From Candidatus Poribacteria bacterium (GTDB taxonomy: Bacteria; Poribacteria; WGA-4E; WGA-3G): a stretch of DNA of 64,000 nt. Numbering within the stretch: position 1 is the stretch's first letter; every line of letters starts with the position of its first letter. Of this stretch, positions 6,571 to 52,000 are shown in pieces. The notes beneath the pieces are model-generated. The model saw nothing but the letters and a program-made list of their open reading frames with translations, was not told the origin of the DNA and made no database searches. The stretch is from the NCBI GenBank assembly GCA_965242965.1, contig OZ251518.1:224001-288000 (forward strand), in the 5' to 3' direction. The position numbers and the translations under genes are program-made.

Positions 6571-7110
6571 TGAGGGTGTTTCATAACTCCGTTATGGATA
6601 CCTCTTTAGGTCCTTTAGCACCTACATGTCTATAGAAAAACAGACATGCCACTGTTTTCAAGGTCCTTTAGGTCCTTAATCCAGCGGCAGCGAGGTGAGC
6701 CGCGGCACATTAAGGTCCTACAGACCTTAGGATGCGCTGCGATGCAAAATGCTATAGACATTAAGGTCTTACAGACCTTAGGCATGGCGAGGGAAACCCG
6801 CTCGGATGCGCGTGTGGCATGCGAGGGCCCAAGCCCTACGGTGAAAGGCGGCGGCCTTGCATATCGTAGCGCGGGGGCCTGTCCCCCGCTTTGGCCAGCG
6901 TCACGATGTCTGTTTCCCCCACTGTAGTTTGTGATCGCCTGATCACAACGGGGTCAGGAGCAGGTGCTCCTGACCTACAAGGGTGATGCGGTTTGTCAGC
7001 CAAACGCGTGGCGAGGGACAGGCCCTCGCCCTACGGTGAGGGGAACCGTTTTTTTTCATCGTATCGCGGGGCGTGTCACCGCGATCGTTGGGCGATTTAT
7101 GAAACCCTCA
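6571..7110. mobile_element. TIR-bounded mosaic REP cassette (MITE-like)
   Basis: Left TGAGGGTGTTTCATAA at 6571, right TTATGAAACCCTCA ending 7110. Interior holds GGTCCTTTAGGTCC/CTATAGACAT-type and GTAG-hairpin modules. Confidence 0.75.
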
Positions 7111-7164
7111 TTATATCCCATATTATACCAAAAAGCGCGTAAAATGTCAAAAGAAAAAAATCAG

Positions 7165-7193
7165 TTGCATTTCCAGAAAAATTGTGTTATATT
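7165..7193 (+). promoter_or_regulatory. Sigma70-type promoter, likely leaderless transcript
   Basis: TTGCAT-17 bp-TATATT, ATG only 6 nt downstream (7200), no SD sequence. Confidence 0.5.
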
Positions 7194-7199
7194 TTAAAC

Positions 7200-7943
7200 A
7201 TGCTCATATTTTATTTAGCCATTGCGGTTTTGACGGTGCCTTTCGGCGCGGGCATCGCCTTCATCTCGCGCACGCAGCAACGCCATTTCGGGATTATCTT
7301 CGGGTTTACGGCAGGTGCAGTCCTCGGCATCGTCTTAATGCTCATGATGCACCTTTACACGGAACAAGGCGGTGCCACCATTTTCGTGATGTGGGGAGGG
7401 TTTCTGCTTATCACGGTGTTGGAATACTTCACGCGGCGGAGGGGAAACGCTCCCCGCACCCACACAAAAAACCTCAGCCTTGACTTAACGCTCCTCGGCC
7501 TGTCCATTCACTCTCTCGCCGATGGGTTCAACCTCGTCATCGCCGAGAGAGAGGCAGCCCTCGGCGGCATGCTAGTTTTGGCAACTCTACTGCACCGACT
7601 CCCCATCGCCACGGTGATGGCGGCCGCACTCTATAAACAGGATAGTGACAAACCGGCAGGGAACACTTTCATTCGGATAATCGGAAAATTGACACCGCTG
7701 ATGTTGGGACCGCTAGTCGGCGCGCTTGCCGGTGAACGACTGCTCCAAGGGACTTTCAAAGAATTCACCGAATATCTGACAGCCTTCGCCGCCGGCACCT
7801 TGTTGCACGTTGTGATGGACGAATTTCGCGCGAGCGAACCAAGCACCGGCCGCATCTCTAAAGTCGTGTTTATCATCGGATTTATCCTCACGTTCTGTCT
7901 GATTTACTTCTTCCAGGGGTTTGACCTTGAGCATCATCACTGA
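7200..7943 (+). CDS. ZIP family metal transporter / permease
   Basis: Multi-TM protein with GLSIHSLADG, LLHRLP and AFAAGTLLHVV ZIP-like motifs and a His tail. Confidence 0.75.
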   Translation: MLIFYLAIAVLTVPFGAGIAFISRTQQRHFGIIFGFTAGAVLGIVLMLMMHLYTEQGGATIFVMWGGFLLITVLEYFTRRRGNAPRTHTKNLSLDLTLLGLSIHSLADGFNLVIAEREAALGGMLVLATLLHRLPIATVMAAALYKQDSDKPAGNTFIRIIGKLTPLMLGPLVGALAGERLLQGTFKEFTEYLTAFAAGTLLHVVMDEFRASEPSTGRISKVVFIIGFILTFCLIYFFQGFDLEHHH

Positions 7944-10452
7944 CATCAAGAAAACCGGCGTTATCTTCATCACCTTCGTCACCTTCGTTATCTTATTGTG
8001 CTTGTTAATCTTCACTACATCGGTGAAAGGTGCTGACGTGCCGCTCGTTGCATCAGGAGAACCGCGCGCCACGCTACAAATCGGATCTGGTGCTTCGGAA
8101 CAGGAACAGTTCGCCGCAACCGAAATACAGCACTTCATCCAGCAATTCACCGGCGCGACGCTGGACATTCTGACGAATCGCGAACGGACGACAACACCGG
8201 CGGTAATCGTGTTAGGCACGCCTGAATCAAACCCCACAATCGCCGGGTTACAGGCGAATGCAAACTTGACATTGGCTGAAACCCTCGGCGACGAGGGATA
8301 TCGACTGAAGACAATTGAATTCGGCACAGAAATTCTTTTCGTTATCACGGCGCACACGCCGCGCGGCGTGCTTTACGGTGCATACAGTTTCATTGAAGCG
8401 TGCATCACCGCACTCACAGGATTATCGCCTGTGCATCCGGAGGTATCCGTCAAGCGTTCGCCCGCGCTACTCGTGCCGTTTCTGGATGAGACATCACAAC
8501 CTTTCTATCCCGTGCGCGCCGTGTTGGAGATAGTCGAACCTGACTGGCTCGCGCGCCACCGGGTAAATATGAGCGGTGCCGAAGGTGGCTTGATCGGCAC
8601 AGGCATCGAAGATGGATTCGGCGCGGCGTTTAAATATATTGATACCCCCGCGTTTGAAGCACTGCAAGATGAACCGCGCGCGCAAAGATTAGAACGGATT
8701 GAAACGCTACAAAATAGGTTCAACGCCCTCAAACAGCGCGGGATTGATGCCTATCTCTTTATGTATGTCACCGGTGAGCCGACAGAGGCACTGATTCGGG
8801 AAATGCCAGAGGTGCTAGGACCGGCGGTGCTTTACGGTGCCTCGCGGAACGAGGTTTCGTATCGGCCCTTCTGCTGGACTAGACCCGAATTCCATGTCCT
8901 CGCGCGGCAGTTAACTCAAGAAATTGTGAGAACCTATCCGGCACTGGCAGGGTTCCACCTTCGTTCGTGGGGACGTGAGACGCGCGGCTGCGATTGTCCG
9001 GAGTGCGGTGACAGGACAACAGAACAGGGACAGGCGCAATTGTGGCAGGTCTACTTTACAATCATCAGTGCTGCACGGGAGGTGAAGCCGGATTTCAAGT
9101 TCTACATTTCGGGATACGATAGTAGTTGGTTGAAGGATGCCGCGGGAGTCTACGCGCAGCAACTACCGAAAGGCACGATTTTCTCCCGAAAATGGGGCGC
9201 GGATGGCGCACCTGTCGCCGATGCTGGCGTGGCGATTCCACAGATGAACGCCCTCGTTGAAATGGGGCACCGCTTCATCGTTTTATCTCACGATGTCGAA
9301 GAAGTGATGCCGTTCTGGATGCTGGAGAGTGATTTGTTTGTGCAAGGCGTGCGACAACTCGCGAACAACCCGAACGCCACCGGTTTAAGCGGGTTCACCG
9401 TGCAAGGCGCGACGCAGGGACTCGGCTACCTTGATAGACTCGTCAGCGCGCGCCTGAATTGGGATATTGAACTTGACGCTTTTCAACTCATGCACAACGA
9501 ATTAGTGGGAAGATACGGTTCCGAAGCGGCACCCCTCATTCTCAATGCCTTGCGCGTCAACGGTTGGAATCTGGCGAGTTACTTTACAGACTACGCCTCC
9601 TCACTCACCGTGGGAGGCACTTATGGCAGTGGTTCCGCCGCGTTCGCAACGCGGTTTTGGGAACTCATCGGCCCGCGCGCTGTCAAGGATACTCTCGCGA
9701 TACCGGACTTGGAAACGGCGAGAACTTCGGTGAACCGGTTCACGTCACTCTTGGCACCGCAGCAGCAATCGGCAAACGAAATGCGCGATGCAAGTGAAGT
9801 GGCAAACTCGTTCGATGGGGAAGCGGCGGAAGATTTACAAGACGCTGTCCACTTGATGGAATTGTGGGTGCAATTCTTCGCGAGCCGCGCGAAACTCGTT
9901 GAAGCAATAGTTCTCGGCTATGAACCCGGTACCGAAAGTGCTATCCGTGCCAAACTGACAAGCGCGATAGAATTTTCAAAATCGATGCAGCCGCATGTCA
10001 GGGGCATTCAGGAGTTCGTCCCGGTCTTCGGTTACTCGCATCGGACGATTGAGGCGGAGCTGCTGAGCCCCTTAAACGGCGAAGCCGCATGGCTCACCAG
10101 TTTTGACCACCAAGTCTTGCGGAAATACGAGGATAGTTTTTCACCGGAGGGAACGCCGCTCCGCATCTCGGCAGTCCATAACTATCCAAACCCGCTGAAG
10201 CGGAAAACCACGTTCACCTATCAGTTGTCGGTGGATGCCGATGAAGTTTCCATCGCCATTTATTCGACATCGGGCCGCAGGGTCGCCGTTTTGACTGAAC
10301 TGCCGGTGAACGAAGGTTACAACGAATTTTTATGGAATGCGCAAGATGCGGATGGCATGCCGCTCGCCAACGGTGTCTATTTCTATCGAATCCGCGCTAG
10401 CGTTGAGGATGAGCGAGTGGAGGCACTTGGCAGACTAGCGGTGTTGAGATAA
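7921..10452 (+). CDS. Secreted glycoside-hydrolase-like protein with C-terminal FlgD-Ig/secretion-tail domain
   Basis: Signal peptide. N-terminal GH20/GH67-like domain (LGDEGYRL...TPRGVLYGAY). C-terminal HNYPNP...WNAQDADGMPLANGVYFYRI. Start codon uncertain. Confidence 0.6.
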   Translation: MTLSIITDIKKTGVIFITFVTFVILLCLLIFTTSVKGADVPLVASGEPRATLQIGSGASEQEQFAATEIQHFIQQFTGATLDILTNRERTTTPAVIVLGTPESNPTIAGLQANANLTLAETLGDEGYRLKTIEFGTEILFVITAHTPRGVLYGAYSFIEACITALTGLSPVHPEVSVKRSPALLVPFLDETSQPFYPVRAVLEIVEPDWLARHRVNMSGAEGGLIGTGIEDGFGAAFKYIDTPAFEALQDEPRAQRLERIETLQNRFNALKQRGIDAYLFMYVTGEPTEALIREMPEVLGPAVLYGASRNEVSYRPFCWTRPEFHVLARQLTQEIVRTYPALAGFHLRSWGRETRGCDCPECGDRTTEQGQAQLWQVYFTIISAAREVKPDFKFYISGYDSSWLKDAAGVYAQQLPKGTIFSRKWGADGAPVADAGVAIPQMNALVEMGHRFIVLSHDVEEVMPFWMLESDLFVQGVRQLANNPNATGLSGFTVQGATQGLGYLDRLVSARLNWDIELDAFQLMHNELVGRYGSEAAPLILNALRVNGWNLASYFTDYASSLTVGGTYGSGSAAFATRFWELIGPRAVKDTLAIPDLETARTSVNRFTSLLAPQQQSANEMRDASEVANSFDGEAAEDLQDAVHLMELWVQFFASRAKLVEAIVLGYEPGTESAIRAKLTSAIEFSKSMQPHVRGIQEFVPVFGYSHRTIEAELLSPLNGEAAWLTSFDHQVLRKYEDSFSPEGTPLRISAVHNYPNPLKRKTTFTYQLSVDADEVSIAIYSTSGRRVAVLTELPVNEGYNEFLWNAQDADGMPLANGVYFYRIRASVEDERVEALGRLAVLR

Positions 10453-10453
10453 C

Positions 10454-10658
10454 TGAGGGTGTTTCATATTTCGATGCGTTCGGTAGGAGAGCCCTCGGGT
10501 CTTGATGTTCCCGTAGCGCGGGGGCCTGTCCCCCGCCATGCGTTTGGCTGGCAGACCTCCTTACCCCTGTAGGTCAGGAGCGCCTGATCCTGACCCGTTC
10601 GGGAGCAGGCGCTCCCGAACTACAGAAGTGGGCCCGATGCCTTTATGAAACACCCTCA
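10454..10658. mobile_element. TIR-bounded mosaic REP cassette with ATAA flanking direct repeat
   Basis: ATAA|CTGAGGGTGTTTCATA ... TATGAAACACCCTCAG|ATAA, with several GTAG-hairpin families inside. Confidence 0.8.
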
Positions 10659-10748
10659 GATAATACCAAACGACGTTGATTCATCCACTGACTCTTCAGG
10701 CGATTCGCACCTACAGAACGCATATTTTTAGATGCAAGGAGGCTAACA

Positions 10749-11852: not shown

Positions 11853-11872
11853 GGGCAAAGTCCTAATAGCAT

Positions 11873-15191: not shown

Positions 15192-16196
15192 ATGCAAACT
15201 CACGTTTATCTCTCCATTGCCGGAGAAAATAGAATTGCGATTTACACGCTGGATGCTGGCACCGGCGCGATTGAATTTCAGGAAGACATCTCGGTGAGCG
15301 GCTCGCCGGGGCCGTTGGCACTCGCGCCGTGCGGTGAGTATCTCTACGCCGGACTTCGTTCCAGCCGGGAAATCGCCAGTTTCCGCATTGACGCGACTAG
15401 CAAGCAGCTCATCCTTTTGCGCACGGTTCAATTGGACGCGGACACTTGCTACATCGCGCCCGACAAAACGGGACGCTTTTTGCTCTCCGCCTATTACGGT
15501 GCAGGCAAGGTGACCGTGCATGCAATCGGCGAGGATAAGACGGTGAAAGGCGAACCTATCCAGACGGTGGAAACCGCGCCGCATGCACACTGCATCGAGA
15601 CAGACGCGTCTAACCGATTCGTCTACGTGCCGCACACCGTGCCACGAAACGCCATCTATCAGTTTCACTTTAACGAAGAGACTGGCATGCTGTCCGAAAA
15701 TAGCAACGGGCACTTGCATCCGGCTGAACCGATTGGCCCGCGCCACTACTGCTTGAATCCACACAAACCGATCCTTTATTCTTCCGATGAACAAGGCTCA
15801 AGTGCGAGCGTTTACGCAGTTGATGAAACGGATGGGAGTCTATCGCATCTGCAGACGCTCTCCACGCTGCCTGCAGATTTTGAGGGTGATAACACCTGCG
15901 CGCAGATTCACATCACGCCGAACGCGAACTTTCTCTACGTTTCTAACCGCGGGCACGACAGCATCGCCGTGTTCGCCATTGACGAGGAAAGCGGACAATT
16001 AACCGCGATTGGCCACCAATTAACCGAGCCCACGCCGCGCGTCTTCAATATTGACGAGACAGGGAATTTCCTATTCGCCGGTGGACTAGGTTCGGGCAAA
16101 CTGGCTACTTATCGCATTGATGGGGAGAGCGGGGGACTCTCGCCGCTTGCAACCTATGCCATCGGCGAAAATCCGATGTGGGTGCTTTTTTTATGA
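15192..16196 (+). CDS. pgl: Lactonase family protein (6-phosphogluconolactonase-like beta-propeller)
   Basis: HAHCI, GPRH, LYVSNRGHDSIA and TPRVF motifs. RBS AAGGAG before ATG 15192. Confidence 0.8.
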   Translation: MQTHVYLSIAGENRIAIYTLDAGTGAIEFQEDISVSGSPGPLALAPCGEYLYAGLRSSREIASFRIDATSKQLILLRTVQLDADTCYIAPDKTGRFLLSAYYGAGKVTVHAIGEDKTVKGEPIQTVETAPHAHCIETDASNRFVYVPHTVPRNAIYQFHFNEETGMLSENSNGHLHPAEPIGPRHYCLNPHKPILYSSDEQGSSASVYAVDETDGSLSHLQTLSTLPADFEGDNTCAQIHITPNANFLYVSNRGHDSIAVFAIDEESGQLTAIGHQLTEPTPRVFNIDETGNFLFAGGLGSGKLATYRIDGESGGLSPLATYAIGENPMWVLFL

Positions 16197-16475
16197 GGGG
16201 GTTTCCTAACTCCGTTTCGGTATTTATCCCGCCTTGGAGAGCGGGCGAATACCGTAAGGCATCGGGCCCACCTCTTCGGTAGTTATCCCGCCTTGGCGAG
16301 AGGGCGAATACCTGCAGGCATCGGGCCCACCTCTGTAGTTCGGGAGCGCCTGCTCCCGAACGGGTCAGGATCTGGCGATCTTGACCTACAGAGGTGGGCT
16401 GTCGGCGAAAATCCGATGTGGGTGCTTTTTTTGTGAGGGTTGGAGCGCAGGCGCGGTTTCAAACCGCGCCTACCG
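16162..16475. repeat. REP cassette flanked by a 38-bp duplication of the pgl 3' end
   Basis: TCGGCGAAAATCCGATGTGGGTGCTTTTTTT(A/G)TGAGGG at 16162-16199 and 16402-16439. A degenerate left TIR overlaps the stop codon. Confidence 0.8.
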
Positions 16476-17502: not shown

Positions 17503-17685
17503 TGAGGGTGTTTCATAACTCCGTTTCGGTATTTATTCCGCCTTGGAGGGCGGGCGAAATACCGGCAGGCATTGGCCCCACCGCTGTAGTTCGGGAGCAC
17601 CCGCTCCCGAACAGGTCAAGATCAGGCGATCTTGACCTACAGAGGTGATGTAGTCTGAAAACGCGCTTGAAAACCGCGCCTACCG
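17503..17685. repeat. REP cassette starting with left TIR
   Basis: TGAGGGTGTTTCATAACTCCGTTTCGGTATTTA..., near-identical to the cassette start at 16194. Contains GTAGTTCGGGAG and GTCAAGATC..GACCTAC hairpins. Confidence 0.75.
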
Positions 17686-25685: not shown

Positions 25686-25707
25686 ATAGCCCTCCGGGTG
25701 CGGTATC

Positions 25708-26974: not shown

Positions 26975-27165
26975 TGAAAGTGTTTCATAAATCGCTCCAC
27001 GTCGCGGAGACAGGCCCCGCGATACGGTGAAAAAAACACCTCTCCTTCACGTAGGGCAAGGGCCTTTCCCTCGCCATGCTGCGATCGCGGGGGACAGGCC
27101 CCCGCGCTACGGTAAAAAACGGTTTTCTTCACCGTAGGGCGAGGGCCTGTCCCTCGCCATTGTTC
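26975..27165. repeat. Left half of TIR/REP cassette
   Basis: TGAAAGTGTTTCATAA (degenerate left TIR). Block 27023-27142 is repeated at 30091-30210. Confidence 0.75.
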
Positions 27166-29999: not shown

Positions 30000-30356
30000 T
30001 TCACGTAGGGCGAGGGCCTGTCCCTCGCCATGCACCGATCGCGGGGGACACCCGCTCGGATGCGCGTATGGCATCCGAGCCCCCCCGCGCTACGGTGAAA
30101 AAAACGCCTCTCCTTCACGTAGGGCGAGGGCCTGTCCCTCGCCATGCAGCGATCGCGGGGGACAGGCCCCCGCGCTACGGTAAAAAACGGTTCTCTTCAC
30201 CGTAGGGCGATGGGAAAACAGGTCCCTCGCCATGCGTTTTGCTGGCAGACCGCATCACCTTTGTAGTTCGGGATCAGGCGCTCCCGAACTACAGAGGCGG
30301 GCATCGCTCGTACTGAGAACGGGACGGCGCGCCAACGGATTTATGAAACACCCTCA
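30000..30356. repeat. Right half of TIR/REP cassette
   Basis: Multiple GTAG hairpins ending in TTATGAAACACCCTCA (30341-30356). Confidence 0.8.
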
Positions 30357-31169: not shown

Positions 31170-31266
31170 CTATTGCATCGAGACCAGGAGGTCTCTCCTA
31201 CCGGAAAGGCATTGAGACCGGGAGGTCTCTCCTACTGGGAAGCCATTGAGTTATGAAACACCCTCA
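31170..31266. repeat. Two GAGACC-family REPs plus right TIR
   Basis: Two GCAT(C/T)GAGACC(A/G)GGAGGTCTCTCCTAC copies and TTATGAAACACCCTCA at 31251-31266. Confidence 0.75.
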
Positions 31267-37229: not shown

Positions 37230-37505
37230 CATTAGGTGTCATGTCCTCCTTTAGAAAGTATCGTAAAAGCGATTTGATAACCGCTAACCCTATTATAGCA
37301 TAAATCGCTTTTTTTTCGATAATTATTTTTTAGAAAATTGTCCCTTTCACCGTAGGGCGAGGGACAGGCCCTCGCCATGCTGCGGTGTCGCCAGAAAACG
37401 TCCCTTGCCGCTGGACTCAAGCGGTTCTAGTTCGATCGCGAAATCGCGAGGGACAGGCCCTCGCGCTACGGACAGGAGCAGGATCACGAGGGACAGGCCC
37501 TCGCG

Positions 37506-38489: not shown

Positions 38490-39115
38490 TGAGGGTGTTT
38501 CATAATTCGTTTTCCCCGGTAGAAGAGACCTCCTGGTCTCGATTTCTGCCGCCCGGTTTCCCTCGCCAGCGTCCGCGCACTCCAGCGATCGCGGGGGACA
38601 GGCCCCCGCGCTACGGGAAAAAAACGGCATGTCACCGTAGGGCGAGGGCCTGTCCCTCGCCATGCTGCGATCGCGGGGGAAACCCGCTCGGATGCACGTA
38701 TGGAAACCTCCGAGGGGCCCCGCGCTACGGAAAAAAACGCCGCCCCTTCACTCAGGGCGAGGGCCTGTCCCTCGCCATGCCCGGACCCTATAAAAGACCG
38801 TAGTTCGGGATTGCCTTCCACCCCGGTAAAACGGGTCAAGATCAGGTGAGCTTGACTACAGAATGGGGCCCAACGCTCGCGGGGGCCTGTCCCCCGCGAG
38901 CTCCATCGTCACGATGTGTGTTTCCCCTTCTGTAGTTTGTGATCGCCGGATCACAAACGGTTCGGGATCAGGCGATCCCGAACTACAGGGCCTGGCGCGC
39001 GAACGATGGCGAGGGACAGACCCTCGCCCTACGATGAGGGGGCTTTCTGCCGGCGCGGCCCCGGTAGGCGCGCCGCCCTATTGCATCGAGACCGGGAGGT
39101 ATCTCCTACGGGGAT
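38490..39115. repeat. Mosaic REP cassette starting with left TIR
   Basis: TGAGGGTGTTTCATAA at 38490 followed by about 10 GTAG hairpins. Block ~38876-39035 recurs at ~49004 and ~49183. Confidence 0.8.
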
Positions 39116-41549: not shown

Positions 41550-41564
41550 GGTTTCCCTCCCAGG

Positions 41565-42167: not shown

Positions 42168-42236
42168 TTTCGTTTCCCTCTTCAGAATGAGCGTTAATAA
42201 TAAGATACCATATTTTCCAATCAAAATCAACTTTAA

Positions 42237-42766
42237 TTAGGGTGTTTCATAAATCCGTGTCGGAGAGCCCTCCTGGTTTCGATGCAAGCGATGTCCCTTT
42301 CATCGTAGGGCGAGGGCCCTCGCATGCCACACGCGCATGCGAGCGGGTTCCCCTCGTCATCGTTCATGTCCGCGCACCCCAACGCTCGCGGGGGACAGGC
42401 CCCCGCGCTACGATAAAAAACGGTTCTTAGGTCCGTAGGACCTTAATGTCTATAGCAGCCGAAACGCAAAAGGCTCTAAGGTCCTTTAGGTCCTTAATAG
42501 GTTTTGCCAGGGCCGCGCGTGGTTTTATTAAGGACCTAAAGGACCTTGAAAACGGTACGACACATGCTGCTATAGACATGTAGGTGCTAAAGCACCTAAA
42601 ACACCACTCTTGACGATGGAGATTGCGGGGGAAACCCGCTCGGATGCGCGTATGGCATCCGAGGGCCCCCGCGCTACGGGAACATCGAGACCAGGAGGTC
42701 TCTCCTACCGGAAATCACGCCCCGAGGTCTCTCCTGCCGAACACATCGAAATATGAAACACCCTCA
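42237..42766. mobile_element. TIR-bounded mosaic REP cassette
   Basis: CTTTAA|TTAGGGTGTTTCATAA ... ATATGAAACACCCTCA|CTTTAA, with GTAG hairpins and CTATAG/GGTCC modules inside. Confidence 0.8.
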
Positions 42767-42824
42767 CTTTAATAGCATTTACGCACTTTTTCCTATAGGC
42801 GTGGTTCATGAGAATAAAAAAAGA

Positions 42825-42853
42825 TTGACGCAAAAACGGCATTTTGGTAAAAT
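42825..42853 (+). promoter_or_regulatory. Sigma70-type promoter of sod operon
   Basis: TTGACG-17 bp-TAAAAT, followed by AAGGAG RBS. Confidence 0.6.
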
Positions 42854-42885
42854 AGGTATCACAACAAAATGACAAGGAGAATCTC

Positions 42886-43605
42886 ATGAATCGGAGAGAT
42901 TTCTTAATGAAAGGTGGCACAGCGGTGGCAGGACTGTTCCTCGCGAGTTCGCCGCTGAGTCTTTACGCGGCGCACCACGAAGTTGCCGAAGCATCCCATA
43001 AGCTGCCGGAACTGCCGTATGCGTATGACGCTTTAGAACCGCACATTGACACCCTCACGATGACAATTCATCACGGCAAGCACCACCAAGGTTACGTTAA
43101 CAAACTCAACGCCGCCCTCAAGGGGCACGATGAGCTTATGAAGATGTCGGTGGAAGCCCTGTTGCGCAACATCGATAAAGTGCCGATGGACATCCGTCAA
43201 GCCGTTATCAACAGTGGCGGTGGACACGCGAACCATACCCTCTTCTGGAACACGATGACTCCGAACGGTAGCAAACCGCTGGGGGAAGTTCTTGAGGCGA
43301 TTGAATCCGCGTTTGGCTCTTATCAGGCTGGTAGCGACATCTTTGACGAAGCCGCGCTGACGCATTTCGGTTCAGGATGGGCATGGCTCGTCGTTGACGA
43401 AGAAAAAAAGTTGCAAACCTACACCACGGTGAATCAGGATAGCCCCCTGATGAAGGGACATACCCCGATTCTCGGGCTTGATGTCTGGGAGCACGCCTAT
43501 TATCTGAAGTATCAGAATCGTCGCAAGGACTACTTGAAGGCGTGGGAAAACGTTATCGACTGGGAACAGGTGAACGCGCTTTATCTCGCGGCGATAAACC
43601 GGTAG
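42886..43605 (+). CDS. sodA: Fe/Mn superoxide dismutase with Tat signal peptide
   Basis: MNRRDFL Tat motif, LPYAYDALEPHI, HHGKHH, GGGHANH and DVWEHAYY. Confidence 0.9.
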   Translation: MNRRDFLMKGGTAVAGLFLASSPLSLYAAHHEVAEASHKLPELPYAYDALEPHIDTLTMTIHHGKHHQGYVNKLNAALKGHDELMKMSVEALLRNIDKVPMDIRQAVINSGGGHANHTLFWNTMTPNGSKPLGEVLEAIESAFGSYQAGSDIFDEAALTHFGSGWAWLVVDEEKKLQTYTTVNQDSPLMKGHTPILGLDVWEHAYYLKYQNRRKDYLKAWENVIDWEQVNALYLAAINR

Positions 43606-43639
43606 ACACGATTGCCGCATCGCGACACGAGGAACGACT

Positions 43640-44776
43640 ATGGAACGCAGAGATTTCCTGAAGCAGAGCGGCTTCACGCTCACCGCGCTGTTGCTGAGCC
43701 CGTGGAGCATCTACGCCTTTCCCAGCAGGGAAGGCGAGGTGCTTGTCCCGTTCGCAGCGCAGTCGCCAGAATCCGACAGCAACCGGGTGCTGCTGGACTG
43801 GAATCGCTTGGATACTTTCATCACGCCGAACGAGAAGTTTTTCAACGTTTCGCATTATGGGAAACCGGAGGTAGCCCTAGGTGCCTGGAGACTTGAGGTA
43901 AGCGGTTTGGTTGACAACCCGCTGATGCTCACGATAGCGGATATCAAAGCACGCCCGCGCCAAGAGGTAACGTTCACTTTGGAATGTTCTGGCAATCATG
44001 GGTTTCCTACGTTTACCGGGGCCATCGGGAATGCGAAGTGGGCTGGCACGCCGCTTGCGCCGATTTTGAAGGAGTCCGGTATCAAACAAAACGGCATTGA
44101 GGTGATTTTCTTCGGGCACGATACCGGTGAAGAGGAGCGGCGCGGTGTCAAGATGCGTCAGAACTTCGCGCGCAGCATGTCCCTCTCGGATGCGATGGCA
44201 GATACCGTTCTCCTCTGCTATGAGATGAACGGTGAGCCGCTGCCGCATGCGAACGGCGCGCCGCTGCGCCTGATTGCACCCGGTTGGTATGGCATCGCGT
44301 GCGTCAAATGGCTCAAACGGATTGAGGTGCGGGATACCCGTTTCATGGGCAGGTTCATGGCGCGCGATTATGTCACGATGCGCGAAGAGAAACGTCCTGA
44401 TGGCGAATCGGTTTGGATGGAAACCTCTGTCGGCCGCACGAAACTGAAATCGTTAGCAGCGAAGGTGACGCGCCTCGGCGATAAATACCGCATTTACGGT
44501 GCGGCTTGGGGCGCGCCGATTGATAGGGTCGAGGTGAGCCTTGACGGCGGCGCGTGGCAAAAGGCGACGCTTGACACGACTGAATCCGCCGAATTCGCGT
44601 GGAAAATCTGGCACCTCAATTGGGATAACCCGACGAAAGGCGAACACATCATCGTTTCAAGGGCAATTGATACAAGGGGCAACATCCAACCCGCTGGCGA
44701 TTCTGCCCATATCACGGGCAAACACACCTATTGGGAGAGCAACGGACAAATCGTCCGCCGGATTCACATTCCGTAG
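43640..44776 (+). CDS. Sulfite-oxidase-family molybdoenzyme with Tat signal
   Basis: MERRDFL, TLECSGN, MNGEPLP..NGAPLRL..PGWYG...VKWL, plus a dimerisation domain. Confidence 0.88.
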   Translation: MERRDFLKQSGFTLTALLLSPWSIYAFPSREGEVLVPFAAQSPESDSNRVLLDWNRLDTFITPNEKFFNVSHYGKPEVALGAWRLEVSGLVDNPLMLTIADIKARPRQEVTFTLECSGNHGFPTFTGAIGNAKWAGTPLAPILKESGIKQNGIEVIFFGHDTGEEERRGVKMRQNFARSMSLSDAMADTVLLCYEMNGEPLPHANGAPLRLIAPGWYGIACVKWLKRIEVRDTRFMGRFMARDYVTMREEKRPDGESVWMETSVGRTKLKSLAAKVTRLGDKYRIYGAAWGAPIDRVEVSLDGGAWQKATLDTTESAEFAWKIWHLNWDNPTKGEHIIVSRAIDTRGNIQPAGDSAHITGKHTYWESNGQIVRRIHIP

Positions 44777-44836
44777 ATGCAATTGTAACGGCGGATGTCG
44801 TTCATGGACACCTGATAAATAGGAGACATTATCCTT

Positions 44837-45616
44837 ATGCACATCACCGATGAACAGAAACAGCAATTCCGAGAGGAAGGCTACTTTATCCTCGAAAACG
44901 TCATCCCGGAGCCGATGTTGGAACTCCTACGCGGCGAATGCGGGACGTTTATTAGTCAGATGGATGCCGAGATGGACAGGATGCAAACGGATGTCCTCGG
45001 CATTAACCATCGCGACAAGCGGTATTTTGTCTCAAATTGCTTCCGCAAGCAGCCGAGACTGCGCGAATTCCTCTTTAGCGAACTGATGGCGGAGCTCTGC
45101 CGTGCCACCCTCGGCGACACGGCGTATCTCTTCTGGGAGCAGTATGTCGTCAAAGGCGCGGAAGCAGGGATGAAGTTCAGCTGGCATCAGGACTCGGGAT
45201 ACGTCGGATACCCAGAACACAAGCCGTATCTCACCTGTTGGTGCGCCCTTGACGATATGTCCGAAGAGAACGGCACCGTCTATGTGATGCCGTTTTCGCA
45301 GATTGGCATCCGTTCGTGGGTGAAGCACATCCGCGAGGAGGGCAGCAACGACATGGTAGGCTATTTCGGACCGGAAAAAGGCGTGCCGGCTATCGTGCCT
45401 GCGGGGAGCATTGCGGTGTTTACCAGCATCAACTTCCACTGCAGCGGCACGAACCGCACTAAGAAGTTGCGCCGTGCGTATCTTGCGCAGTATTCGGCTG
45501 AGCCGCTCCTTTCGCACGATGGGACGCGTCTGTGGGGCAATGCGGAGCCGCTGTTGCGTGACGGAAAGTCGGCAGTGGGGGAACCGCCGCCGGAGATTGC
45601 GTCGCGGTTTGATTGA
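44837..45616 (+). CDS. Phytanoyl-CoA dioxygenase (PhyH) family protein
   Basis: F.EEGY, WHQD, WCALDD..EENG and H.SG.N motifs. Confidence 0.9.
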   Translation: MHITDEQKQQFREEGYFILENVIPEPMLELLRGECGTFISQMDAEMDRMQTDVLGINHRDKRYFVSNCFRKQPRLREFLFSELMAELCRATLGDTAYLFWEQYVVKGAEAGMKFSWHQDSGYVGYPEHKPYLTCWCALDDMSEENGTVYVMPFSQIGIRSWVKHIREEGSNDMVGYFGPEKGVPAIVPAGSIAVFTSINFHCSGTNRTKKLRRAYLAQYSAEPLLSHDGTRLWGNAEPLLRDGKSAVGEPPPEIASRFD

Positions 45617-45705
45617 ATTCCTAGTTCGGCGCAAAGGCTGTCCCTGACATCGCGGAGGTGTAGGGGCACCTTTTGTGTCGTTCAACGCAGCATCGGAGGT
45701 CAAAC

Positions 45706-46410
45706 ATGGACAATTTTGAGAGACTGCTGAGTCTGGCGGAATTCGCTGCGAAAAGGCATGAGGAAAGAAGGCAAGTTGAGTTCAGAATCTTCATCACCTA
45801 CCTAACTTTTCTTGCTGTAATTTTCTATCATTTTACGAAAAAAGAGGGTTTAGTCCGAGACTTGATTACTTGGCTCGGTGTGCCTGTCTCAAGTTCTTCG
45901 GATCCAATCAATCCTTGGGTTCTAATTGTTGCCTTATCGCTTATCCACGTGGTTTACTTTTTCTGGCAGACGACTATTGGGATAGCGAATCAGAATGACA
46001 CACGCCGAAGAGATTTCTTTTTGGAGCGGGCGGAATGTATTTCTCAATATTTTATCAAGAACCCTCATAGTAAGACCTTTAGACCGAATGATCAGAAAAA
46101 GGTTCAAGTTGTGCGTGATGGTAAAATTGTTGAAAAATGTGAAATGGAATTTTTTGCGGAACAGCGTCCGCAGATAATTCTACCCCCGTACACAATAAGG
46201 AAAATGATAGAGTATTCTCACAAATTTTTGGAAGATTGGTTTCGCGGATCCCAATTTGCAATTCCAACTATTATGTTGGGGACACTTTTTTTCCTTAAAT
46301 TAGACTTCTGGTGGCAAGGTTTGCTAACCTTAGTCCTTCTTGCGATTTTATCATTGATTTTACCGTTTGTTTCACTTTGTTGGAGAAAAAGGAAACGCAA
46401 TGACAATTAA
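45706..46410 (+). CDS. Hypothetical multi-pass membrane protein, AT-rich
   Basis: GGAGG RBS, about 4 TM segments, visibly lower GC than neighbours. Confidence 0.6.
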   Translation: MDNFERLLSLAEFAAKRHEERRQVEFRIFITYLTFLAVIFYHFTKKEGLVRDLITWLGVPVSSSSDPINPWVLIVALSLIHVVYFFWQTTIGIANQNDTRRRDFFLERAECISQYFIKNPHSKTFRPNDQKKVQVVRDGKIVEKCEMEFFAEQRPQIILPPYTIRKMIEYSHKFLEDWFRGSQFAIPTIMLGTLFFLKLDFWWQGLLTLVLLAILSLILPFVSLCWRKRKRNDN

Positions 46411-46684
46411 GCAATTCCAAAAGCAGATCGAGGCAATCTATTACGAACGCGACGCTGAACGCGGTGTCCCCCTCACCTTCACGTGGTTCGTCGAAGAAGT
46501 CGGCGAACTCGCGAAGGAAATCCGCAAGCATCCGCACGACATAACACGACTCCGCGAAGAGTTCGCAGACGTGTTTGCATGGCTCGCCACGCTGGCTAGC
46601 CTGCTTGATATAGATTTGGCGGAGGCGGCGCAAATCTACGCAGATGGATGCCCGAAGTGCCAAGATACGCCGTGCTGTTGCTAA
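46400..46684 (+). CDS. MazG-like nucleotide pyrophosphohydrolase
   Basis: EEVGELA...EEFADV motif and C-terminal CPKC..PC.C. Confidence 0.85.
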   Translation: MTIKQFQKQIEAIYYERDAERGVPLTFTWFVEEVGELAKEIRKHPHDITRLREEFADVFAWLATLASLLDIDLAEAAQIYADGCPKCQDTPCCC

Positions 46685-46760
46685 TCCACGACAGTTGTCT
46701 AATTTGTCCAATGCCCGGTAGGCGCGCTTACAAAGCGCGCCTATCCGTTTCGCCTCCCAC

Positions 46761-48601
46761 CTATATCGTTTTGAGATGGCACTGCAACGCGAGGTTCGCC
46801 GCAAGCGTATCAGTCAACGCAATATCACGGCAGATGAAGATGGAATCTTTCGATAGCCGCAGGTGTTCTATGTCTGTCTCCGCGAGCTCTTTGTCTAAAC
46901 AGACATGGAAAGTTTGCGTTCCATCAGGCGCGCTAATTCGGAAGACGGTGTTCGTTTGTAACCCGGCGACTTCTTCCATCGTGCTGTCAAGTGGGTATCC
47001 CTCCTTGAGCGCGATTTCATAAAGGACATCCTCAACTATCCAACCGTTGCGAAGCGTATCAATGGTGTTCTCTAACTGCGCGATATACGTCTGTGCATCC
47101 TCGGCGGTAATCTCGGCTTCCGTGCGGTAGTTCGATTCGGCGAGTTCAAAGACACGGAAGCCTATGTCCCCGTTGAGGTTTTGACAGACGCGCCGAATCC
47201 GTTCCTTCCCAATCTCGGCGATAGTCTGAAAGCCTGCCTTGCGCGCCGCCGATTTCTCAGGTGTCCGTTCCGGCAGTTGCACCATGATAAACTGCCGCGT
47301 GCCCGAATCCTCCTGATTGAGTTCCAACACTGCCTGTGCTGTCGTGCAGGAACCGGCGAAGAAATCCAAAATGATTGAATCGCGGTGAGTGCTAAATTGG
47401 AGAAGGTGCTTGATTAAGCCCACCGGCTTGGGATTGGTAAAGATGCCATCTGCATCGAGAAGCTCCCGCAGCTGGGCCCTGCCGTGACTGTTTTTCTCAA
47501 CATCGGTTAACAGACCGCGCGGGACTCTCCCGCTTGATTCGTTCAGGTAACGCTTGTATTCCACGAGCCACTTCCCTTTTTGCGATTTTCTAAAGACGAT
47601 GCGATTTTCCTTTTTCATTTGCAGAAAACGCGACTCCAGCCGGTTCCACTCGTTGAAGACAAAAGAACCGTCGGGACATTCGATCTTGTATTGCAATCCT
47701 GGGGAGGGATGATCTGGTCTTCCGCGTGTGAAGGCATCGGTTTTATAGGGACCGCGGGTGGCATAATGCTCATCTTTTTGCGTGTAGGCGGCACTCTCCT
47801 TTTCAGTGAGCGGATACCGAAACCTTCCGGTTACAGCGCGGTCTTTTGCGTAAGCGAGGATGTATTCGTGGTTTATCGCGAAGTGTTTGGCATCGTTACT
47901 TCCGCTAGCGTATCGTTGCCACACCAATTGTTGCAGGCAGTTTTCCTCGCCGAAAATCTCGTTCATGAGAAGGCGGAGGTTGTAAACCTCGCGGTCATCG
48001 ATACTGACGAAGATGATGCCGTCATCGGTGAGGAGTTGTCGTGCGAGGAAGAGACGCGGATACATCATCGACAGCCATGCCGAGTGGTATCGGCCGCTCG
48101 TCTCTGGGTTGCTGGTTTGCAGATTGCCCTCGGTATCAAGTTGCCCGGATAGTTGCAGATAAGCCGCCAGCGGTTTCGCGTAGTTATCAGGATAGACGAA
48201 ATCGCTCCCGGTGTTGTAAGGCGGATCGATGTAGACGGCTTTGATCTTGCCGAAATAGGGTTTGTAGAGGAGTTTCAGCACCTCTAGGTTATCGCCTTCA
48301 ATGAAGAGGTTTGGGCTGCTGTCAAAATGCAGGGCAGCATCTCGGTGCGGCTTGAGGGTAGCCTCGGTAGGGACGCTAAGCAGGCGGATGGCATCGCGTT
48401 TGCCTGCCCAATTGAAACTATACCTATCCGATGTCTCTGCTTCAGTCTGTTTACCCCTTTTACCCCCCCTTCACAAATGTATATAATCTGCTGAAGTTTT
48501 TCCGCGTCAATGCTGCCTTCGGTGAGGCATTCAGGGAAGAGTTGCTTAAGTTGGCGGAGTCGTTCCGCGTTGGGGTTAGGGGTTGTTTTCGGGGTTTTCA
48601 T
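46761..48601 (-). pseudogene. Type III R-M Mod-like site-specific DNA methyltransferase, frameshifted at G7 tract (possibly phase-variable)
   Basis: N-terminal LKQLFPE..TEG.ID in one frame; DRYSFNWAGK..NLFIEGDNLEVL..YIDPPYNTG..DFFAGS in another. One extra G at the tract 48463-48469 joins them. Confidence 0.85.
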
Positions 48602-48628
48602 TGGCGTTTTTCCTTGCGCTAGGCACGG

Positions 48629-48922
48629 CTATATCTCCGACAGTTCAGGGACGTGTGCGTCCTCATAATTTTCAATGAGCGTCCCAATGAAGTCCATCAA
48701 CGAGGCTAAGATGTGGTCTTCGTTTTCACCAACGGTATCAATTAAACCGTCGAGGATTGCCACGAGTTGTTGATAGTCATTTTCTGTCAATGAGGCGAAA
48801 AGATGGGGTTCGCTCGTGCCAACGGCATCAATTAGATGTTCTAACGCTGGCACAAGTGGTAGAGAATTCCCAATGGGTTCTGCCTGCAACGGACTAGATA
48901 GCGGGGTGTGTCTGGGCATCAT
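48629..48922 (-). CDS. HigA-like antitoxin N-terminal domain protein (no HTH)
   Basis: ENDYQQLV..LD.LID.VGENEDH.LASL...IG.LIE.YE pattern resembles the HigA N-terminal region. Confidence 0.5.
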   Translation of the reverse strand: MMPRHTPLSSPLQAEPIGNSLPLVPALEHLIDAVGTSEPHLFASLTENDYQQLVAILDGLIDTVGENEDHILASLMDFIGTLIENYEDAHVPELSEI

Positions 48923-48941
48923 ATTACTCCTTCAACTTAAG

Positions 48942-49416
48942 TGAGGGTGTTTCATATTTCAATTTCTTCCCGGTAGGAGAGACCTCCCGGTCTCGATTTT
49001 CCTGTAGCGCGGGGGCCTGTCCCCTGCGAGTTCCATCGTCACGATCCGTGTTTCCCTTCTGTAGTTTGTGATCGCCTGATCACAAACGGTTCAGGATCAG
49101 GCGATCCTGACCTACAGAGCCTGGCGCGCGAGCGATGGCGAGGGACAGGCCCTCGCCCTACGGTGAAGTGCCGTTTTTTCCCGTAGCGCGGGGCCCGTCC
49201 CTTGCGAGCTCCATCGTTCCGATGTGTGTTTCCGCCTCTGTAGTTTGTGATCGCCTGATCACAAACGGTTCAGGATCAGGCGATCCTGACCTACAGAGCC
49301 TGGCGCGCGAGTGATGCAGAAATCAAGACCAGGAGGGCTCTCCTACAGGGACATCGCTTGCATCGAGACCGGGAGGTCTCTCCTACCGGGATGCAGCGAT
49401 TTATGAAACTCCCTCT
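48942..49416. mobile_element. TIR-bounded mosaic REP cassette with TTAA flanking repeat
   Basis: TTAA|GTGAGGGTGTTTCATA ... TATGAAACTCCCTCTC|TTAA, with an internal ~130-bp block duplicated. Confidence 0.8.
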
Positions 49417-49417
49417 C

Positions 49418-50686
49418 TTAATTTGCATCCAAAAACCGCTCAAAATTCCCGCCGAACAGATTGCCGACATCCCGAACGATTTCCGAACGCGTCACACACC
49501 AACCCGCATCCAATAATGTCTGATACTTCTCCGCCAAAACATCGGCGATGATCTGGCGCGAATGTTTCCATTTGTATACCAGCTGATCCAAGATGCGCGC
49601 ATCCGAATGTTGCGGGATAACGCTCAACCCCAGCAACTCAAGCCGCTCACGCGTAATCTCCTCAATAATGCTCGGATTGTTCATGAACCACCAACACCCG
49701 AAAATCATCAGGTTTTTGAACTTCCTGCCGATGACGCATAACTCATGCTGGTTCTCGCGCGACAGAAGCGTTACCAAAAACTTATTGTCGGGATGTTCAC
49801 GGAGCAACGCCTCTAAACTACCCAGGTCTGCCTTCGCGCTGCCATCGCCAGCCATCTGGAGTTGCGGATTCACGGCGCGTTTGACACCAATCATCAGCGC
49901 GAACGGAACGTTGAATTCACGCGAGACCGGCAGGATACAGTTATCGAACACTCTACCGAGGATGCCGTCATCAGGATACCGAAAATCCGGGGGGAGCGAG
50001 ACTGCCATGTATTTTGGTTGCATCCGTTGAATCCACGTCTCCAAGAATCGGCGCACCTCTTTCTGTGCCTTTTCAGATGAGAGCGTTGCATCCACCTCAT
50101 AACCAAGTCCGCGGAGGTGTTCATAAGCGGTTTCTTGGTAAGTGTTGATCAGCACGTCCAGCCGCAGCGCGGCGTGAAACCGCGAATCGCCGGTATTCGC
50201 AGATTCCCACACTGGGGATTCTGCTGCATCAAAAGGGTCATTCGTCATAACGACTTGTGAGACATTGGCGCGGGCAAACACCGTGTCAATGAACGCCTCG
50301 ACGGAGGTATCCGCAAAGTAGTTACGGTAGTCCTGCAGGTTGCGCGCGGTGACATCCAACCCCAATTCGTTTAACGTCGTGACGACACCGCGGCATGCCT
50401 CGCTCAACGGCGAGTTTTCAATGAAGAGTTTCTGCCAGATGAGCTCCGCCTGTTCCGCCTTCGTCATCGCCCAAAACTGCTGATAGGTGACATCCGATTT
50501 GCGGAATACCTCGGCGATGAGGTAGTGATACGTCAGCAATTCGTCAATGCCCCACAGCAACAATTCCCCGAAGGGTGGACTGAACAGATGCGTGTGGATG
50601 TCGGTGACGCTTTGCGCGTGGACCTCTGTCGTAACAGCGGTTTTCAGTTCAGCCGCGTTCGCGATGGGCTGCGTGCCGTTGTTCAT
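49418..50686 (-). CDS. uxaC: Glucuronate isomerase (divergent BH0493-type uronate isomerase)
   Basis: TDIHTHL, LLTYHYL, MTNDPF, GCWWF and HSDAR motifs. Confidence 0.85.
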   Translation of the reverse strand: MNNGTQPIANAAELKTAVTTEVHAQSVTDIHTHLFSPPFGELLLWGIDELLTYHYLIAEVFRKSDVTYQQFWAMTKAEQAELIWQKLFIENSPLSEACRGVVTTLNELGLDVTARNLQDYRNYFADTSVEAFIDTVFARANVSQVVMTNDPFDAAESPVWESANTGDSRFHAALRLDVLINTYQETAYEHLRGLGYEVDATLSSEKAQKEVRRFLETWIQRMQPKYMAVSLPPDFRYPDDGILGRVFDNCILPVSREFNVPFALMIGVKRAVNPQLQMAGDGSAKADLGSLEALLREHPDNKFLVTLLSRENQHELCVIGRKFKNLMIFGCWWFMNNPSIIEEITRERLELLGLSVIPQHSDARILDQLVYKWKHSRQIIADVLAEKYQTLLDAGWCVTRSEIVRDVGNLFGGNFERFLDAN

Positions 50687-50689
50687 TCT

Positions 50690-51094
50690 TCATTCTCCCG
50701 GAGGCGCGCTTTCCAAACGCGCCCGAATAAAATCAACTATCGATTCCGATGGCTGTGTGCCAAATCGGACGTAAACGCCCCGGAAATTCTCCAGCCGCGT
50801 CGGTTTCGCAAAGGGACTGAGCAGTATCCCGTTCGCATCAACATAAGAACTCCGGAACGTAGCCCAGGGCCGTTCCAACCGATAGCAACATGCCGTGACG
50901 ATAAGCCTATCCGTCTCGCACTGGTAGCGGAACGGCAAAAAGTATTTGTAAAGCGAACCGATTAGGAACAGTGCCGATAGCACCACGACCGGGGCAGACC
51001 GGAACCCCCAATAGATGCAGAGGAAAAGGAAACACAGAAAAATCCCCAGTAGCGCGCTCCGTTTCCAATTTTCACGAGCGGATGCACTGTCCAT
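50690..51094 (-). CDS. Hypothetical membrane protein
   Basis: Two TM helices and LSPF...RL..FRG motif, in the secG operon. Confidence 0.6.
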   Translation of the reverse strand: MDSASARENWKRSALLGIFLCFLFLCIYWGFRSAPVVVLSALFLIGSLYKYFLPFRYQCETDRLIVTACCYRLERPWATFRSSYVDANGILLSPFAKPTRLENFRGVYVRFGTQPSESIVDFIRARLESAPPGE

Positions 51095-51138
51095 GAGATT
51101 TGTTCGTCGGTTTGGTGCTGCGTTTCCATTTTTCTCGC

Positions 51139-51558
51139 CTACTCAGTCTCCTCTGGCGTAACTCCATCGACTTCGGTTTTCGAGGATTGTCCTCCTTCGG
51201 CGGGTGTCTCACTTTCGGTGCTGTCCGCCTCGTCTCCGCCGACGGTGTCAACGGGTTCCGGTGTCTCACCCTGTTGCGTCTGTTCTTGCTCAATCGGGGT
51301 GAGGGCACCGCCGCTCTCCTCGCCGTAGAACCGCATTAAGATGAGCGAGATAACCATGAAGCCGACGGCCAACCACGTCGTCATTTTGCCGAGGAAAGTC
51401 GCGGCACCGCGACTGCCCAACATTGACTGCATCTCCGCGCCGCCAAACGCGCTTGATGACAGCCCTTCGCCTTTGCTGTCTTGTAAGAGGATGATCAGCG
51501 TCAAAATGACGCAGACCGGAACGAAAAGCACTACTGCAAATCCAATGATAATTCCCAT
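51139..51558 (-). CDS. secG: Preprotein translocase subunit SecG
   Basis: ILLQ.SKG.GL...FGG...G.RGA..FL.K.T motif, downstream of tpiA. Confidence 0.9.
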   Translation of the reverse strand: MGIIIGFAVVLFVPVCVILTLIILLQDSKGEGLSSSAFGGAEMQSMLGSRGAATFLGKMTTWLAVGFMVISLILMRFYGEESGGALTPIEQEQTQQGETPEPVDTVGGDEADSTESETPAEGGQSSKTEVDGVTPEETE

Positions 51559-51619
51559 GAGATATTCCTTTTAAATCTTAGCCAGTCTGCAGTTTGAGTC
51601 TCCCTGAGCTCAAATTGCC

Positions 51620-52000
51620 CGGGCTCAGGCGAGCCCGAACTACGGAATAGATTGCACTGACTCAGGCGAGCCCGAACTACAGAATAGATTGCACTGGTAG
51701 GCGCGCTTTGCAAGCACGCCTAGGGTTCATGTTGTTCACGTCTAACTTCAGGGTGTTTCATAACTCCGTTAGTGCTTAAAGCCCTGTAGGTCAGGATCGC
51801 CTGATCCTGACCCGTTCGGGAGCGGGCGCTCCCGAACTACAGAGGTGGGCCCGATGCACCTTACGGGCACATCGAGACCAGGAGGTCTCTCCTACGCTCC
51901 CGAACTACAGAGGTGGCCCCGATGCGCTCTCCCCCAAGGAGGATAAATTTATGAAACACCCTCAGTTTATTGCATCGAGACTGGGAGGGCTCTCCTACCG
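51620..52000. mobile_element. REP cluster with TIR-bounded cassette (51748-51964)
   Basis: TCAGGGTGTTTCATAA ... TTATGAAACACCCTCA, flanked by 37-bp tandem CTCAGGCGAGCCCGAACTAC units. Confidence 0.75.

Follow-up and report, generated by a model that had tools for sequence, protein, structure and literature searches.

Non-coding cassettes filled with REP arrays within insertion-sequence ends in a Candidatus Poribacteria genome

The analysis of a 64,000-nucleotide window from a Candidatus Poribacteria genome (G000; GenBank assembly GCA_965242965.1; G000:C1:224001-288000, contig OZ251518.1), extended to the whole genome, identified non-coding cassettes in which arrays of repetitive extragenic palindromic (REP) hairpins lie between short terminal inverted repeats. 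The best explanation, to which we assign a probability of roughly 0.7, is that the REP arrays are held within the ends of a 1.1-kb insertion sequence (IS) of the DDE type, were spread as miniature transposable elements with inverted repeats (MITEs) by its transposase, and had their insides reshuffled by recombination between copies. The cassettes represent a real, lineage-specific and probably immobile MITE family that derives from an IS982-related element. The genome comprises 5.70 Mb, including a 5.66-Mb chromosome in one contig, with a completeness of 94.7%; the host is an uncultured sponge symbiont lineage. Comparisons were made with two sister genomes, G001 and G002 (1.45 Mb of DNA, approximately one third of G001 and a few G002 loci), and with G022, another Poribacteria genome of the same family as G000.

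A 16-base end sequence was matched 17 times in the window (≤3 mismatches), compared with 0.44 matches expected from shuffled sequences. The true end begins at G and reads GAGGGTGTTTCATA[A/T]. The 14-base core, GAGGGTGTTTCATA, is present in 1,025 copies in G000 (≤2 mismatches), compared with 11 for a reversed control. These ends form 301 inward-facing pairs less than 1.6 kb apart and 423 solo ends. The paired cassettes have a median length of 376 bp (range 69–1,381 bp) and sum to 124.8 kb. Of the inward-facing neighbours, 270/334 are less than 1 kb apart, compared with 23/334 of the outward-facing ones; the genome-wide extraction of the terminal repeats thus found them paired and not randomly placed, consistent with the initial sequence-only reading of the window.

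Duplications of 7–17 bp flank 172/301 pairs, compared with 6 in permuted pairs, and are most often 8 bp (100 pairs) or 9 bp (44 pairs) in length. The target consensus is an AT-rich palindrome, ANTTAANT, of which 8–9 bp are duplicated, and the outer consensus of the solo ends is the same as that of the paired ends. The outer T or A tracks the target: at left ends bordered by a base other than T, this base agrees with the final one of the right-hand duplication in 14/19 cases, and in the mirror test on the other side, the outer base agrees with the duplication in 9/10 informative cases. As the outer base follows the target duplication, it is not part of the repeat. This rules out a 16-bp end with a 4-bp duplication, as had been proposed from the window, and equally one with a 6-bp duplication. 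Long open reading frames (ORFs) hold 7.7% of the ends although they cover 69% of the genome. Approximately 4,800 target-like intergenic sites are present in G000, and approximately 700 are occupied.

The parent element was identified in a related genome. In G022, the exact end occurs paired 1,107 bp apart in 7 copies, one of which has a 332-amino acid (aa) protein between the ends and a perfect 8-bp duplication outside. Identical ends are present in 22 of the 25 close relatives of this IS whose sequence was of sufficient length for the comparison. Subfamilies further removed resemble it in their GAG ends and 8-bp targets. The G022 transposase matches the DDE_Tnp_1_3 profile above the cut-off, and the acidic residues in YEDKS, ADNGY and IEPVF are invariant across 12 aligned proteins. 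The best NCBIfam match was IS982 (NF033520; 55.2 bits, cut-off 130). The IS982 family (PMC7335449) resembles the parent in its length of ~1 kb, single DDE transposase and duplications of 2–10 bp. Since the ends begin GAGGG here, rather than AC(N)6T(N)5TT as in that family, and the score lies below the cut-off, the element is considered IS982-related and not a member. An IS5- or IS1182-like parent had been guessed from the window, and this was not borne out (IS1182, 21.7 bits with a cut-off of 270; IS5, 16.7 and 14.3 bits with cut-offs of 140 and 110).

The expectation of an IS with the same ends thus held for related Poribacteria, where it is full-length; G000 itself contains only fragments. 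A tblastn search of G000 gave short fragments at three places, no match to PF13612 or PF01609 was found there, and the suggestion of a two-tier system that works today was not supported, as no intact DDE transposase was found in this genome. The left end of the IS survives in part at eight places in G000, at seven of them over ~130–137 bp, and in the sequences listed, seven run on into REP modules. An 894-bp element at G000:C1:2778973 consists of 137 bp of the IS left end, REP modules and a right end, with a 9-bp duplication, and therefore provides a direct link between the IS and the cassettes. The exact end is present in 61/176 genomes of the phylum, all of one family, with 530 copies in G000 and at most 38 elsewhere. 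The same architecture was not found at scale elsewhere: the seven places inspected outside g1 were IS deletion remnants without REP cargo. A plasmid search for a named IS gave one weak, unnamed transposase. On this reading, REP arrays would quite likely have entered a copy of the IS, and deletions would have joined them to its ends; the transposase would very likely have moved the composites in trans to approximately 700 intergenic sites after the split from G001, and then been lost. Separately, related IS subfamilies, 39–48% identical, occur in other Poribacteria and in Chloroflexota; their ends read GAGGGGTGTGCATAA or GAGGGGTGTTCATAA, their 8-bp targets are likewise AT-rich, and they apparently form an unclassified IS group near IS982.

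A REP match is present in 299/301 cassettes, which carry 247 distinct module strings. Matches with an intact GTAG foot in G000 number 4,521 for REP-A, 1,642 for REP-B, 1,785 for REP-C and 209 for REP-D; the paired cassettes hold 595, 424, 299 and 0, respectively, and the DNA up to 900 bp inward of a solo end holds 918, 492, 480 and 6. The GTAG-intact counts were used because the REP-A pattern hits both hairpin strands, which inflates the count made without the GTAG rule (8,092). Between the sister genomes, REP-D (the GTAGGCGCGGTTT type) was matched 675 times in 1.42 Mb of G001 and 319 times in 5.66 Mb of G000, and the proportion is reversed for REP-B and REP-C (83 and 39 in the same G001 DNA; 1,791 and 1,867 in G000); the REP families appear to have succeeded one another.

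Linkage inside the cassettes was analysed in an alignment of 43 copies belonging to the 266/296-bp type and taken from the three largest families with one member left out. Their pairwise identity averages 87%, with a maximum of 94%, and only 125 of the 876 non-consensus cells are singletons. At the 29 common sites, the second allele accounts for 368 cells and the third for 34, and 16 of the 29 sites are transversions; the near two-allele spectrum, with over half transversions, is therefore not saturation-like. With hairpin partners excluded, r2 is 0.10 at 1–5 bp, 0.044 at 6–15 bp and 0.028 beyond 30 bp, compared with 0.027 for permuted columns and 0.59 for clonal simulations. All four gametes are present in 97–100% of the distant site pairs. 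The base-paired positions of the hairpins stay linked (r2 0.91–1.0).

Further evidence of exchange comes from the cassettes as wholes. Among 39 cassettes with perfect ends and duplications, none has a sibling at ≥95% identity, and 28 lack a sibling over their full length. Only 7 pairs carry the most frequent end type on both sides, compared with 33 expected, which indicates that left–right polarity is kept. Five elements were found in G001, and two of them have the insertion junction of G000 but wholly different insides up to the ends. One G001 contig of 34 kb (G001:C102) holds three of these five elements, and ten ends lie in the orthologous stretch of G000 (C1:3.00-3.03 Mb); the region may have been transferred or be a favoured one. 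Internal indels number 294, of which 163 were scored as low-homology, many of these 163 being out of register; the most frequent are hairpin-loop inserts of 29 bp and 24 bp, and not GTAG-bounded units. These two inserts recur in the loops of REP-A and REP-B (for example at window 6791-6809 and 42335-42353) as present or absent alleles across cassettes. We infer that the insides were exchanged repeatedly, in register, between copies. Gene conversion and unequal crossing-over, acting in register and with polarity kept, would probably have randomised the alleles and altered the number of modules, while the pairing may have been kept by selection or by repair of single-strand folds. On balance, homology-driven recombination by the host may be enough, with nicks at CT|GTAG by a REP-associated tyrosine transposase (RAYT) at most stimulating it.

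A stronger role for RAYT is the rival that survives best. It had been proposed from the window that the cargo consists of GTAG-footed REPs, known as RAYT/TnpA substrates, and the cargo and the genes were both found: an intact RAYT lies among REP-B copies at G000:C1:3147526-3147930 (NF047646, 120 bits, above the family cut-off), with the motifs TIVT, HLH and Y..NPVRKG. The hallmarks of RAYT proteins, as given in PMC2817692, are an N-terminal Thr, HUH, a catalytic Tyr and NP(L/V)(R/K)xG. G002 has a RAYT with REP-C flanks and a weaker RAYT-like gene with REP-A flanks. In the rival scheme, the DDE transposase spread the REP MITE cargo to approximately 700 sites, displacing an earlier REP type, and RAYT nicks single-stranded REPs at the CT of the GTAG hairpins and primes exchange or copying, so that fine exchange is ongoing among the now immobile cassettes and whole insides are replaced between fixed ends; the element would then act as a population that recombines freely within a single genome. 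REP-B feet inside cassettes keep C (96%) and T (95%) at the two positions before GTAG, and CT is described as a RAYT cleavage site (PMC8266576); the full linkage of hairpin pairs among unlinked neighbouring sites would also fit, and Nunvar et al. question whether homologous recombination or slippage is by itself the source of variation in bacterial interspersed mosaic elements (BIMEs) (PMC2817692). However, the sole RAYT found in G000 is tied to REP-B, yet REP-A, REP-C, the spacers and a non-GTAG hairpin adjacent to the ends are shuffled too, and the commonest indels are the 29-bp and 24-bp loop inserts described above. RAYT as the shuffler is not supported, the indel boundaries often being out of register, and we regard this two-enzyme scheme as rather unlikely. 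If it were true, REPs would have a second way of spreading that is independent of RAYT, and the cassettes would form a natural record of RAYT rearranging REPs. An IS200/IS605 element at G000:C1:3123891-3127127 carries an intact 408-aa TnpB, and was rejected as a REP mobiliser as its TnpA is interrupted by two TGA stops.

To return to the reading of a DDE-mobilised MITE, the joint insertion of shell and cargo was assessed by mapping the flanks of all 301 cassettes to the sister-genome DNA; for 65 cassettes, both flanks mapped together in G001 or G002. No sister site was filled. Nine clean empty sites were found among them, being single-copy targets without REPs, a further 18 fit in length, and two rows were set aside. 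A tenth row (2879606) that appeared cleanly empty was dropped, as it matched a module inside a G001 cassette and not an orthologous site, and the single row with an end in the relative was a 2-mismatch chance match. Reciprocally, G000 has a clean empty site where one of the G001 cassettes stands. The lack of any cassette at the 65 sister sites, with nine clean empties, therefore identifies shell and cargo as lineage-specific insertions. Taken with the pairing, the target duplications and the IS with the same ends in relatives, the empty sites uphold the suggestion that the shell is a non-autonomous element of the DDE type. The cassette at G000:C1:2879606-2879856 (251 bp) has its own duplication and is inserted in the 'E' module of a larger cassette.

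The shell had been proposed as either a landing pad or a vehicle for REP modules, and the vehicle is favoured because of the empty sites, the families present at many sites and the shared REP flanks. Whole-cassette families at ≥85% identity comprise 25, 13 and 6 copies at unrelated sites, each copy with its own duplication, and those of 25 and 13 keep the same module order. The 5' flanks of REPs are unique in 3–4% of cases inside cassettes, compared with 23–49% outside, and 88–94% of the flanks inside cassettes have five or more partners. The landing pad would have empty MITE shells spread first and REPs inserted later, independently in each copy. This would accommodate the 232/301 cassettes without a full-length sibling at 85% identity (one pair exists at 95%), the 156/629 cassette spacers without a partner elsewhere, the position of most REPs outside cassettes (3,008/4,521 REP-A) and a 69-bp element without a REP match. 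It is nevertheless improbable, since no family of empty shells was found, nearly all cassettes contain REPs, the 69-bp element consists of two cassette-type ends, and the stereotyped flanks and the module order at unrelated sites are not those of independent arrivals. The sibling-less cassettes, and the 192/892 free REP clusters that have a spacer in common with three or more cassettes, do count against a simple vehicle picture.

A marginally less probable alternative is capture in place, in which ends inserted on both sides of local REP arrays, every cassette would be a small composite transposon built of local DNA, and the mosaicism was inherited from BIME diversity. It draws on the pairs without a duplication, on the free REP clusters with cassette spacers, and on extra DNA between two target-like sites in a sister genome, as in the 102 bp at G000:C1:5227908. 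Against this, a single duplicated target at 172 pairs is not expected from two separate insertions, the nine clean empty sites lack any REP, and the arrays at the sister sites are mostly REP-D, of which 0/209 copies lie inside cassettes. Least probable of all is that the mosaicism is a product of repeat mis-assembly or of recurrent mutation at a few unconstrained sites without exchange: the relatives' records suggest a metagenome-type assembly, and 72/264 invariant alignment columns beside 26 with 10 or more variants would fit strong rate differences, but the chromosome is a single contig, the left end of one window cassette is spanned by contigs of two studies, the G001 cassettes carry the same modules and spacer variants, and the three- and four-allele spectra of saturation were not seen at the common sites.

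Several observations weigh against the reading of a DDE-spread, recombined MITE. Of the 301 pairs, 129 have no duplication and, together with the 423/1,025 solo ends, they mean that a large part of the family does not conform to a clean MITE. At the sister sites, 36/65 are too rearranged to be called empty or filled and then lost. The 43 copies in the linkage set were chosen for ≥85% identity and a single alignment was used. The loss of linkage within 5–15 bp is finer than expected of RecA-type conversion, and mutS is present in G000. The two junctions shared with G001 may be independent insertions (a chance of ~0.16 for two of five); one of them is displaced by a single base, and the same G001 contig carries both. 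As the genome is 94.7% complete, an intact transposase could also be unassembled.

The solo ends are most simply read as cassettes from which one end was later deleted, and this is the likely explanation. In 27 solos with the outer flank mapped to G001, homology stops no more than 15 bases short of the end and is picked up again 200–1,400 bp inside; for 26 of them, G001 lacks an end sequence, and for many it has a REP-D array instead. Hidden partners were rejected as a general explanation, with a degenerate opposite end found for 100/423 solos compared with 47 in the reversed control. At a loose threshold, 28 solos have a duplication beside an end-like sequence, and most remain solo. Concerning age, 36 of the 100 8-bp duplications contain one mismatch, which corresponds to ~2% change per copy, compared with ~10% in the G000/G001 flanks; as a rough estimate, the burst therefore followed the split of G000 and G001.

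IS-derived MITEs and REP/BIME arrays are both known, and it is their merger that is unusual. The cassettes resemble IS-derived MITEs (Correia/NEMIS, RUP, Nezha and ERIC; PMC3733652, PMC3184786) in their short terminal repeats shared with an IS, target duplication, non-coding and intergenic nature, hundreds of copies and stable fold. Five of six tested features of such MITEs were found, the exception being internal homogeneity. Unlike these MITEs, the cassettes have no conserved core, their alleles are unlinked and their inside is another mobile family; they are also longer, at up to 1,381 bp compared with the 70–300 bp given in those sources. With REPs, BIMEs and REPINs they share GTAG hairpins that form dimers and modular arrays, arrays that combine several REP types, compensatory changes that maintain pairing and a REP-flanked RAYT (PMC2817692, PMC3733652, PMC8266576). 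In contrast to those systems, a third to half of the REPs here lie in or beside DDE-type ends, the insertion sites carry 8–9-bp duplications of a DDE target, and the spacers are common to distant loci, whereas the inter-REP segments of Stenotrophomonas are described as unrelated.

The nearest architectural parallel found is the neisserial intergenic mosaic element (NIME; dRS3-RS-dRS3), which likewise has a constant short terminal repeat, variable cores drawn from many families, and syntenic arrays that differ between strains, with recombination proposed (PMC1797815). The dRS3 is a 20-bp palindrome and a proposed recombinase site, and its positions are largely conserved between genomes, according to that source. 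The present cassettes are set apart by the published dRS3 consensus, and by IS ends with duplications, lineage-specific sites and GTAG REP cores. IS-type and REP-type DNA are also physically nested in REP-targeting IS and in TIRtrons (PMC3184786, PMC3733652). IS1397, IS621 and IS1594 insert into REPs (PMC3184786); here, it is the REPs that are enclosed by IS ends, with an AT-rich palindrome as the target. In TIRtrons, the repeats flank tyrosine transposases (PMC3733652), whereas the ends here flank a DDE gene. In the literature searched, supplements and subscription journals being outside its scope, no paper was found that describes REP arrays bracketed by MITE ends or mentions these Poribacteria repeats. 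REP spread is still described as poorly understood (PMC8266576), and the REP arrays here seem to have travelled as cargo of a DDE MITE. The cassette's own target duplication marks and roughly dates each insertion, which gives approximately 170 cassettes a reference point for internal change that ordinary BIMEs do not have. The loss of linkage within ~15 bp with pairing kept places a sharp constraint on models of REP/BIME turnover.

In the window, the five cassettes that had been bracketed by the sequence-only reading were examined individually. Four have both ends where claimed, and the right end of the fifth is a 12-base variant. The cassettes vary in length (538, 203, 528, 473 and 215 bp) and module content, as had been stated. 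No Rfam family was matched within the window. Matching AT-rich flanks had been reported for three cassettes, and flanks do match at these three and at neither 6572 nor 51749; the reported ATAA, TTAA and TTTA are only the inner bases of 8-bp duplications. Of the three, only the duplication at 42238 is convincing alone, as flanking 8-mers alike at 6/8 positions are no commoner in cassette pairs (17) than expected from permuted pairs (19).

Cassette 1 (6572..7109, 538 bp) has an exact left end at 6572-6585 and a right end at 7098-7109, where the deletion of 2 bases caused the 16-mer search to miss it. It contains a GTAG 'E' hairpin unit, a loop-extended REP-A, REP-A copies and a REP-B dimer (6924-6978). 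There is no target duplication, and the orthologous G001 site comprises 53 bp without an end sequence. Cassette 2 (10455..10657, 203 bp) has two exact ends around a degraded REP-C, a REP-A (10513-10541) and a REP-B dimer (10569-10623), and folds strongly as single-stranded DNA (z = -8.7). Its target reads AGATAACT at 10447..10454 on the plus strand and AGATAATA at 10658-10665, alike at 6/8 positions. The cassette is missing from the G002 ortholog, where other sequence stands.

Cassette 3 (42238..42765, 528 bp) has REP-C at both inner ends, with a loop-extended REP-A, REP-A and an 'E' unit between them. Its duplication is exact at 8/8 positions (ACTTTAAT at 42230..42237 on the plus strand, repeated at 42766-42773), and the cassette is missing at the G001 ortholog, which is shorter by 524 bp. 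The left end is crossed by contigs of sequencing runs X1 and X3, and a contig of run X5 has another junction at the right side; no clean empty allele was found among the sequencing-run rows listed for window 41000-52600, and the listed runs included none of RNA. Runs X1, X3, X5 and X10 indicate the existence of strains that diverge by 1.5–4%. Cassette 4 (48943..49415, 473 bp) contains REP-C, REP-A, an internal direct duplication of ~179 bp that holds the REP-B dimer twice, and two further REP-C. Its target copies are ACTTAAGT (48935..48942, plus strand) and TCTTAATT (49416-49423), alike at 6/8 positions. Cassette 5 (51749..51963, 215 bp) contains a REP-B dimer (51786-51840) and REP-C, is without a target duplication, and has a G001 ortholog without an end sequence.

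The solo ends claimed at 16194, 17503, 31266 and 38490 exist, the first with 2 mismatches, and two more were found, namely an exact one at 30341-30356 and one with 2 mismatches at 26975. On the plus strand, the core at 16195..16208 precedes two G hairpins with a REP-B dimer (16335-16389), that at 17504..17517 precedes a G hairpin and a REP-B dimer (17586-17640), which make up the left half of a common cassette type of 266 bp, and that at 26976..26989 precedes REP-A copies; the exact end at 38491..38504 opens a REP-C/A/B array of ~620 bp. On the minus strand, the exact end at 30342..30355 closes a REP-A/REP-B array starting at ~30005, and the exact end at 31252..31265 closes two REP-C copies (31177-31235). 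The solo at 16195 is flanked by a 38-bp direct duplication with one mismatch (16162-16199 and 16402-16439), which takes in the outermost bases of the end; it looks as though copying from the empty allele had removed the absent end; similar cases are present at G000:C1:919866 and 1591107.

Other features were also identified in the window. Three 133-bp tandem units at 25347-25745 each contain a REP-C-like hairpin, and the last overlaps the end of a DUF815 gene. A 245-bp intergenic repeat containing REPs occurs at 35903-36147 and 37235-37479 (91% identity, 1,332 bp apart), each copy downstream of an ORF of 319–322 aa, one with DUF4268, and this is probably a tandem gene duplication. An ORF of 1,176 aa on the minus strand at 2474-6004 has DUF499 and a weak Swt1-like HEPN match, and is possibly a defence-type gene. 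In G002, the superoxide dismutase region is present in two tandem copies (G002:C1:1603816-1608808).

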